IMG/VR virus record: IMGVR_UViG_3300050505_000211
Source: a virus
DNA length: 46,896 nt
Reading direction: 5' to 3' (one strand)
The translations under genes and the position numbers were made by a program. Below are positions 41,433 to 42,066 of the stretch, in pieces. The notes under the pieces are model-generated. The model was given only the letters and a program-made list of their open reading frames with translations, was not told where the DNA came from and ran no database searches. How positions within the stretch are numbered: the stretch's first letter is position 1; every line of letters starts with the position of its first letter.

Positions 41433-41626
41433 CCTTGTTCGATCTTGTGCAGGGCATGGTGGATCAGCGTCTCCCACAGTTTGAAGGAGCTGGCATCAAG
41501 CGAGAGGGAGCGCAGGTGTCCTTTGGACGAGGGAGAGGCAAGTTCTTTCTCTGCCAAGCCCTGTACGTGGAGAAGAGAAAAAACAAAGTGGTAATCAAAA
41601 ACACACCAACCGCAGGAGGATTATGA
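41429..41626 (+). CDS. hypothetical protein (65 aa)
   Basis: ATGA overlaps on both sides. Confidence 0.55.
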   Translation: MTLFDLVQGMVDQRLPQFEGAGIKREGAQVSFGRGRGKFFLCQALYVEKRKNKVVIKNTPTAGGL

Positions 41627-42066
41627 TCATGGGTACAAAATTTGAAAACGCGTTCAGTCACAACAGCAGCGCCAACGTGATTATGAAAGCTCTGGCCGTG
41701 GTGGAGGAGTTTCCGTACCGCACGACAGCGGAGATGGCTTCGAAGATCAACGCCAACCAGCTCACCGGCGAACAGCTGCATAAAGCTCTCTCGCGTTTAG
41801 TGAAGGCAAACAAGATTCATAAAGTGAAAGCTCGTCGCTGCACTATCACTGGCAAGCTAGCCACAACCTGGGCTCCTATTTACACGGTGTTGCTTCTCCT
41901 TTGTTTCGCCTTCCCTGCCTTTGCCAATGAGGGGCATAGCGATCACTTCGACTGTGGGCATGTTGGCCGCGACTGCCGCACATCTGTGTCCGTACCGGAG
42001 CCGTCTGGAGCAGCTCTCCTTGGCCTTGGCCTGGTTGCAGTTGGGCGTTTTCTTCGCAGGCGATAA
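41623..42066 (+). CDS. winged-helix-like N-domain fused in frame to signal-peptide-like segment and PEP-CTERM sorting motif
   Basis: C-terminus VPEPSGAALLGLGLVAVGRFLRRR (PEP motif + TM + Arg cluster). Internal LLLLCFAFPAFA/NEG looks like a cleavable signal. Confidence 0.65.
   Translation: MIMGTKFENAFSHNSSANVIMKALAVVEEFPYRTTAEMASKINANQLTGEQLHKALSRLVKANKIHKVKARRCTITGKLATTWAPIYTVLLLLCFAFPAFANEGHSDHFDCGHVGRDCRTSVSVPEPSGAALLGLGLVAVGRFLRRR

Follow-up and report, generated by a model that had tools for sequence, protein, structure and literature searches.

A phage winged-helix gene joined in frame to a captured mini PEP-CTERM gene of bacterial type

Why does a small phage DNA-binding protein end in a sorting signal of bacterial envelope proteins? 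The question is raised by an open reading frame (ORF) at 41623..42066 (+) of IMG/VR virus record IMGVR_UViG_3300050505_000211, which was analysed here over its full length of 46,896 nucleotides (nt) and is called the window below. The window represents an uncultured soil-type phage, and a tailed one, with the large terminase, portal and major head protein on its minus-strand arm; the surroundings of the ORF include a serine recombinase and a primase-like gene. The ORF turns out to be a one-off in-frame chimera of a winged helix-turn-helix (wHTH) gene and a captured bacterial-type mini PEP-CTERM gene, and on balance we think that it is translated as one protein. Its parts are as follows, with residue positions here and throughout given in the 147-residue numbering (from the ATG at 41623).

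41629..42066 (+), chimeric ORF: 145 amino acids (aa) from the ATG at 41629, which has Shine-Dalgarno (SD) support, or 147 aa from the ATG at 41623; TAA stop included.
41629..41877 (+), wHTH DNA-binding domain of a conserved, phrog_1123-like, early-region phage family (profiles, AlphaFold2, Foldseek).
41878..42059 (+), inserted module: a mini PEP-CTERM gene minus its Met and n-region (blastn and MAFFT against contig L001; homology to proteins P0012 and P0016).
41872..41925 (+), hydrophobic segment APIYTVLLLLCFAFPAFA, the former h/c-region of a signal peptide, predicted to be the first transmembrane (TM) helix, TM1 (hydropathy, charge, homology).
41926..41991 (+), His/Cys loop NEGHSDHFDCGHVGRDCRTSVS, 22 residues (aa 102-123), predicted to be periplasmic (SDHFDCGHVG match, net charge -2).
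41992..42063 (+), PEP-CTERM signal VPEPSGAALLGLGLVAVGRFLRRR: VPEP, TM helix and RFLRRR (TIGR02595, PF07589).

The first-pass annotation of this DNA had read the ORF as ending in VPEPSGAALLGLGLVAVGRFLRRR (41992-42063), had taken that end for a genuine PEP-CTERM signal, and had named the curated TIGR02595 model as the means of checking it. The frame reads as described, and the signal passes the check: on TIGR02595 (NCBIfam), which has a cutoff of 16, the whole protein scores 18.0 bits and its last 24 residues alone score 24.1 bits. The 13 other NCBIfam matches are to the C-terminal ends of named PEP-CTERM families or to related C-terminal sorting-domain models, and PF07589 gives 23.0-24.7 bits on pieces of the tail, with a gathering score of 20.7. 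PEP-CTERM proteins were defined by the C-terminal position of three elements, namely the PEP motif, a TM helix and a cluster of basic residues (Haft 2006, PMC1569441). The tail has the three elements and the position. The near-invariant Pro-Glu-Pro lies within VPEPS (aa 124-128 of 147), and GAALLGLGLVAVG, with a hydropathy of 1.7-2.0, is followed by RFLRRR and the stop. A regular-expression scan of the window in all six frames showed no other coding frame with a PEP-CTERM-like C-terminus. The His/Cys loop that precedes it (41926-41991) has no Pfam match.

The same annotation saw a winged helix in the N-terminal part, and profile searches, AlphaFold and Foldseek bear this out. The match of the chimeric ORF to phrog_1123 is weak (E 1.5e-3), and a profile built from its relatives, in which the ORF itself was included, scores it at 119 bits. 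This profile retrieves 153 proteins of 71-186 aa, some of which have MarR_2 or HTH_24 Pfam matches or are annotated as HTH or MarR; used against the PDB, the family profile finds Lrp/AsnC, MarR and Lrs14 structures. AlphaFold2, run with 65 sequences, models an intact wHTH fold with pLDDT >90 for residues 11-90, consisting of three helices and a beta-hairpin wing (H13-27, H33-39, H47-59, E63-70, E77-83), to which the best Foldseek matches are PadR, MarR, TFE-alpha and ArsR (probability 0.98-1.0). The domain extends to about residue 83. In an exhaustive phmmer search of 1.84 billion representative proteins, which gave 20 matches, the wHTH relatives (best E 3e-19) match query residues 7 to about 90 only, ending at 84-90. 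In the approximately 150 family members the chain ends no more than 12 residues beyond the wing's conserved TW, whereas the chimeric ORF goes on for another 64. Only one of the 136 retrieved sequences, the window protein, combines a wHTH with hydrophobic segments and a PEP motif.

The additional residues are a discrete captured mini-gene and not an evolved extension of the wHTH protein, a point that the first-pass annotation overlooked. The closest relative, P0002 (69% identity, 93 aa), is encoded on contig L001, which is syntenic with the window on both flanks at nucleotide identities of 70-81%, with 76% as the summary figure. In blastn and MAFFT comparisons the homology with L001 breaks at 41877 and resumes at 42060, and the approximately 165-180 nt that encode the entire tail are missing from L001. 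By parsimony across the family, the short form is the ancestral state and the tail was inserted.

The library-wide phmmer search also revealed what was inserted. The 59-residue tail (aa 89-147) matches two stand-alone mini-proteins, P0012 (E 5e-6) and P0016 (E 7.5e-5), which are metagenome proteins (ENA) encoded on contigs of 733 and 2063 bp. A pairwise BLASTP comparison of P0012 with the tail gives E 2e-15 and 48% identity over 52 residues, and SDHFDCGHVG is shared between the two at 10 of 10 positions. P0012 (76 aa) begins MRRITNSLLLALLLGVTPALA|NEDSSDHFDCGHVGSLCKDQGNDTANVPEP, P0016 (68 aa) consists of a signal peptide, a His-rich peptide and a PEP-CTERM signal, and both pass TIGR02595. The phage segment aligns with these precursors from about their residue 4 to their end, and just the initiator Met and the basic n-region (MRRITNS in P0012, MRFRTTG in P0016) are missing from the phage copy. 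Furthermore, a signal-peptidase-type site in the chimera, PAFA|NE, aligns with PALA|NE in P0012 and PAFA|SN in P0016.

Besides the phage copy, the mini-protein family has two members among the 1.84 billion representatives. None was confirmed in a scan of JGI metagenomes that included the pattern DHFDCGH, the tail alone gave no match in a word-indexed protein search, and cultured phages gave no blastn or tblastn match to it. IMG/VR yielded no relatives either, whether it was scanned with the whole protein, with the primase-like protein next to it, or with the alignments of the tail and of the wHTH. A genome contig scan with the tail alignment, in which the patterns omitted SDHFDCGHVG, returned generic PEP-CTERM tails of many phyla and no donor lineage. 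The base composition of the insert (GC 58%, in the 96th percentile, with unremarkable GC3) is uninformative, because Ala/Gly/Leu-rich coding accounts for the GC content.

Other small or serial PEP-CTERM proteins were met in the same searches. Two Gammaproteobacteria metagenome-assembled genomes (MAGs) encode mini PEP-CTERM proteins of about 72-78 aa (L012:5869-6096 and L026:5863-6096) in which a Pro/Lys-rich linker of about 20 residues joins a signal peptide to a PEP-CTERM signal; bacterial genomes thus do encode exosortase substrates of very small size. P0013 and P0017, among the library proteins of 1198-2500 aa, contain several complete signal peptide-domain-PEP-CTERM units in series without stops, and the query tail is likewise matched by 10 separate stretches of P0006 and by 5 of P0015. 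Either a gene-calling artefact or an unusual genetic code in the source organism would account for this.

Could the chimera have arisen in the computer, as a chimeric contig or through an indel error that joined two genes? The sequence is of metagenomic origin and was read here at the contig level. However, a separately recorded contig, L002 (JGI sample 3300007076), is 100% identical over 2942 bp, spans both junctions and carries the identical 145-aa product, and the occurrence of the same sequence on two contigs argues against a one-off of assembly. Near the junction, none of the alternative frames contains an ATG or a basic n-region, so that an indel had nothing of this kind to displace, and synteny with L001 is intact on both flanks. 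An artefact of assembly or sequencing is thus extremely improbable.

If the gene is one, is its product one as well? The ATG at 41629 is preceded by a strong SD sequence, AGGAGG (-10.3 kcal/mol), and the same 145-aa start was picked by an independent gene caller. The first-pass annotation had offered, as one of two alternatives, initiation inside the frame near 41887, at the following codons.

41887..41892 (+), in-frame GTG (41887) and TTG (41890), proposed internal starts, judged unlikely (SD pairing at background).

Initiation there would give a separate, secreted and exosortase-sorted peptide of about 59 aa and would make the wHTH protein a by-product of the same frame. The two codons do lie in frame exactly at the start of the hydrophobic core, and stand-alone homologues of 68-76 aa exist. 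However, SD pairing is -2.4 kcal/mol for the GTG and -2.1 kcal/mol for the TTG, which is background (median -2.7), whereas most of the likely gene starts in this arm pair at -6 to -14 kcal/mol; the product, MLLLLCFAFPAFA..., would be devoid of the basic n-region that begins P0012 and P0016; and the wHTH part, upstream of both codons, holds no + strand promoter-like site. Internal initiation is therefore not supported, and we consider it decidedly improbable. A terminator-like hairpin at 42029-42046, within the tail codons, is not above shuffle expectation.

Two further genes follow the chimera.

42066..42227 (+), conserved Cys/His ORF of 53 aa, coupled to the chimera by TAATG (L001 homologue; SD score).
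42224..42439 (+), second, stand-alone wHTH of 71 aa and of the same family (phrog_1123 E 4e-10; not in L001).

The 53-aa ORF is zinc-ribbon-like (CGC...C..H), overlaps the chimera stop as TAATG, and has an upstream SD pairing of just -3.0 kcal/mol. In L001 the homologous ORF (385-546) is preceded by a GGGAG, which is lost in the window. Because it has no SD of its own and overlaps the stop, translation of the 53-aa ORF probably depends on ribosomes that read through the tail. Since the internal starts have neither SD nor n-region, the ATG at 41629 is strong and the 53-aa gene is coupled, the fusion protein is most likely the main product of the chimeric gene.

The place of insertion can be compared with that in other contigs. 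Five related contigs share the order of a small ORF, a wHTH gene of 86-93 aa and replication genes, the last being primase-like, UDG, exonuclease and PolA genes where the contig extends that far. The slot downstream of the wHTH gene is a moron site, i.e. a hot spot for accessory DNA. It is followed or occupied in L001 by the 53-aa Cys/His ORF and in L033 by a tRNA-Ala gene (anticodon TGC) at 1410-1487, 11 nt past the wHTH gene, and L035 and L036 have short gaps there. In L045, the single locus with the wHTH from the JGI metagenome scan, an 86-aa wHTH gene is followed by an ORF that starts with a lipoprotein signal peptide, MKRIAQAAVALSVLSAC, and whose ATG overlaps the wHTH stop (L045:1056-1466). 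Judging from this lipoprotein-signal ORF, the slot of L045 holds a different envelope-directed accessory gene, and with stop/start overlaps of that kind a small deletion or indel would suffice for an in-frame fusion with an envelope-directed gene downstream. Among the compared contigs the PEP-CTERM module and the second wHTH paralogue are present in the window alone; the paralogue lies 160 nt after the chimera, and L001 is without window 42236-42446. The second wHTH could back up DNA binding if the fused copy were membrane-bound.

Such a location is what the predicted topology implies, and it agrees with the other alternative of the first-pass annotation, a hairpin of two TM helices with a cytoplasmic winged helix. 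The two hydrophobic segments of the protein (aa 84-101 and 127-141) have flanking net charges of +6, -2 and +4, from which the positive-inside rule predicts a membrane hairpin with both termini inside. TM1, whose hydrophobic aa 90-101 read LLLLCFAFPAFA, reaches a Kyte-Doolittle value of 2.3, with a net charge of +6 immediately upstream. The layout predicted for the chimera is the pre-processing topology that was drawn for PEP-CTERM proteins by Haft 2006 (PMC1569441).

The origin and fate of the protein may be pictured as follows. An accessory mini-gene of bacterial type, encoding a signal peptide, a His/Cys peptide of about 22 residues and a PEP-CTERM signal, would have entered the slot downstream of the wHTH gene and become fused to that gene in frame, giving up no more than its Met and its basic n-region and taking the place of the last few wHTH codons. 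In what is most likely a single translation product of 145 aa, the winged helix would stay in the cytoplasm, the former signal-peptide core would become TM1, for which the DNA-binding domain would provide an n-region in the form of its basic wing, and the His/Cys loop and PEP motif would face the periplasm, followed by TM2 and the RRR back in the cytoplasm. Signal peptidase I, if it still cuts after PAFA, would produce a membrane-anchored wHTH stub and a PEP-CTERM peptide of 46 aa; the latter would be identical to the product of the stand-alone gene and could serve as a substrate for exosortase in a diderm host. It would go considerably further to suppose a functional fusion, in which an early DNA-binding regulator has been made membrane-tethered, with its periplasmic His/Cys loop and its PEP-CTERM signal as targets of the exosortase (or the signal peptidase) of the host, and we regard this as very improbable. 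If it were true, phage early gene control, or exosortase activity itself, would be coupled to the state of the host envelope or of its exopolysaccharide, and a sorting signal would have been turned into a ToxR-like sensor or, alternatively, into a decoy by which exosortase is jammed.

Several observations weigh against a chimera that is translated and sorted as described. For the whole protein PF07589 gives 20.6 bits, which is 0.1 below its gathering score of 20.7, and AlphaFold confidence is low over the tail, where the model is uninformative. An N-terminal signal peptide is present in 97% of PEP-CTERM proteins (Haft 2006, PMC1569441), whereas the chimera has none in that position: its signal-peptide-like segment (aa 84-101), which was assessed by hydropathy, charge and homology, stands behind the folded wHTH and has no Met or n-region of its own. 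A folded domain of 83 residues before the hydrophobic core is atypical, and export may suffer from it. No exosortase was found in the window, and a search with the portal protein for the host in approximately 1400 genomes of four phyla gave matches of at most 28% identity throughout and no host call. The fusion is, in addition, a singleton that occurs in no second lineage; for this reason there is no way of showing that the fused state is under purifying selection, conservation gives no evidence of function, and the fusion may be recent and neutral or mildly harmful.

The fusion may instead be an evolutionary accident without any exosortase role. A captured or decaying mini-gene would have lost its start and would now be read through, with the tail serving at most as an unspecific anchor in the membrane, or else being a neutral or slightly deleterious addition still to be purged. 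The fusion is indeed unique among about 150 wHTH family members, the mini-protein family is tiny and rare (the two other members mentioned above, and none in JGI metagenomes, IMG/VR or cultured phages), and the second, stand-alone wHTH downstream could cover DNA binding. Yet all 62 tail codons are open and the functional elements are all intact (PAFA|NE, the conserved SDHFDCGHVG, VPEP, the TM helix and the terminal RRR), the junction costs the mini-gene just about three codons while the wHTH fold stays complete, and expression of the 53-aa gene now depends on ribosomes that traverse the tail. An accident of this kind is a possibility to be taken seriously, and nevertheless an unlikely one; a gene chimera translated as one protein is the reading that we prefer.

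An organism with a PEP-CTERM protein is expected to have several of them, together with an exosortase (EpsH/Xrt) and an outer membrane. The first-pass annotation stated that the phage appears to plug into the host exosortase pathway and that the motif constrains host identity. The former was an overstatement, in that the fusion is unique to its lineage and missing from some 150 relatives, and the phage can at most be suspected of using the pathway. The latter holds to the extent that the host should be a diderm with exosortase, but not more narrowly, because similar tails occur in several phyla. The genome contig scan found them in Alpha- and Gammaproteobacteria, Verrucomicrobiota, Acidobacteriota, Planctomycetota and others, including MAGs of Acetobacteraceae, Rhodospirillales, Akkermansiaceae, Bryobacterales, Planctomycetota and Gammaproteobacteria, and exosortase (TIGR02602) scored above cutoff in four of the five bacterial MAGs with similar tails that were tested. 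The portal search gave seven distant matches in 401 Pseudomonadota genomes, two in 301 Planctomycetota genomes, and none in 351 Verrucomicrobiota or 351 Acidobacteriota genomes; among cultured phages the portal reaches about 24% identity at best, to phages of Proteobacteria. An ORF with a lipobox-like SFNGC (27269-27824, -) starts inside a TM/coiled-coil ORF that adjoins the portal gene, and the two fit an o-spanin/i-spanin pair, which suggests a diderm host. A frame with five TM segments at 377-1132 (-) was considered as a phage exosortase and rejected, since it is antisense to the DNA ligase gene and has no family match. An ATP-dependent DNA ligase-like ORF is located at 807-1871 (+), with NCBIfam PRK09125 at E 8e-31, below the curated cutoff.

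Exosortase/PEP-CTERM sorting is still poorly characterised experimentally. In the literature searched we found no description of its use by phages; a 2026 preprint mentions, in passing, a PEP-CTERM domain in a virus-like Dehalococcoides element. A narrow pattern detected four phage-borne PEP-CTERM genes in IMG/VR. In record IMGVR_UViG_3300043633_000023 (L042; 41.8 kb, rated 100% complete), a protein of 245 aa with a signal peptide and a PEP-CTERM signal is encoded at 2344-3081, within the structural module and directly upstream of a P22-like portal gene, and the record has no exosortase. What is new in the present locus is the minimal cargo, a His/Cys peptide of 22 residues from a very rare family; the fusion of PEP-CTERM cargo to a cytoplasmic-type DNA-binding domain, contrary to the rule that the signal peptide is N-terminal; and the clear before/after comparison with a relative that has no insert. 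The locus thereby documents the capture by a phage of a minimal exosortase-substrate gene at a moron slot, and brings to light a family of tiny His/Cys PEP-CTERM peptides (SDHFDCGHVG). It also provides a natural construct, in which a cytoplasmic domain stands ahead of a signal-peptide core and a PEP-CTERM signal, and which, if processed, would be a compact test substrate for the requirements of exosortase and signal peptidase. Even as a mere accident, it would still give a clear view of the way in which accessory genes of phages become joined to core genes.

Like the substrates of PEP-CTERM/exosortase systems (EpsH, XrtA), the chimera has VPEP, a TM helix and an Arg cluster at its extreme C-terminus, scores above the TIGR02595 cutoff, and has a signal-peptide-like segment with an AxA site upstream and no TM helix between that segment and the PEP-CTERM signal. 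In contrast to them, its signal-peptide-like segment is internal, following a cytoplasmic-type DNA-binding domain of 83 residues, its 'mature' part has just about 22 residues, and it is encoded by a phage with no exosortase in the window. With the stand-alone P0012 and P0016 it shares the three-part layout, in which a signal peptide containing PA[FL]A is followed by a short peptide rich in His (or His and Cys) and by a PEP-CTERM signal, whereas these proteins start with Met and a basic n-region and are unfused. The PEP-CTERM cargo of L042 is likewise an exosortase-type sorting signal on phage DNA without exosortase, but it is a separate gene with its own N-terminal signal peptide and a folded passenger domain, whereas the cargo in the window is minimal and fused to a DNA-binding protein. 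Finally, the chimera resembles the membrane-bound one-component transcription factors ToxR, CadC and TcpP in architecture only, with an N-terminal cytoplasmic winged helix, a TM helix and a Cys-containing periplasmic segment. It is not a member of the ToxR/CadC type, which has an OmpR/PhoB wHTH, a single TM helix and a folded periplasmic sensor domain: in the chimera the wHTH is PadR/MarR/TFE-like by Foldseek, the periplasmic part is a predicted loop of 22 residues with no sensor domain, a second predicted TM helix returns the C-terminus to the inside, and no homology with these factors was detected.

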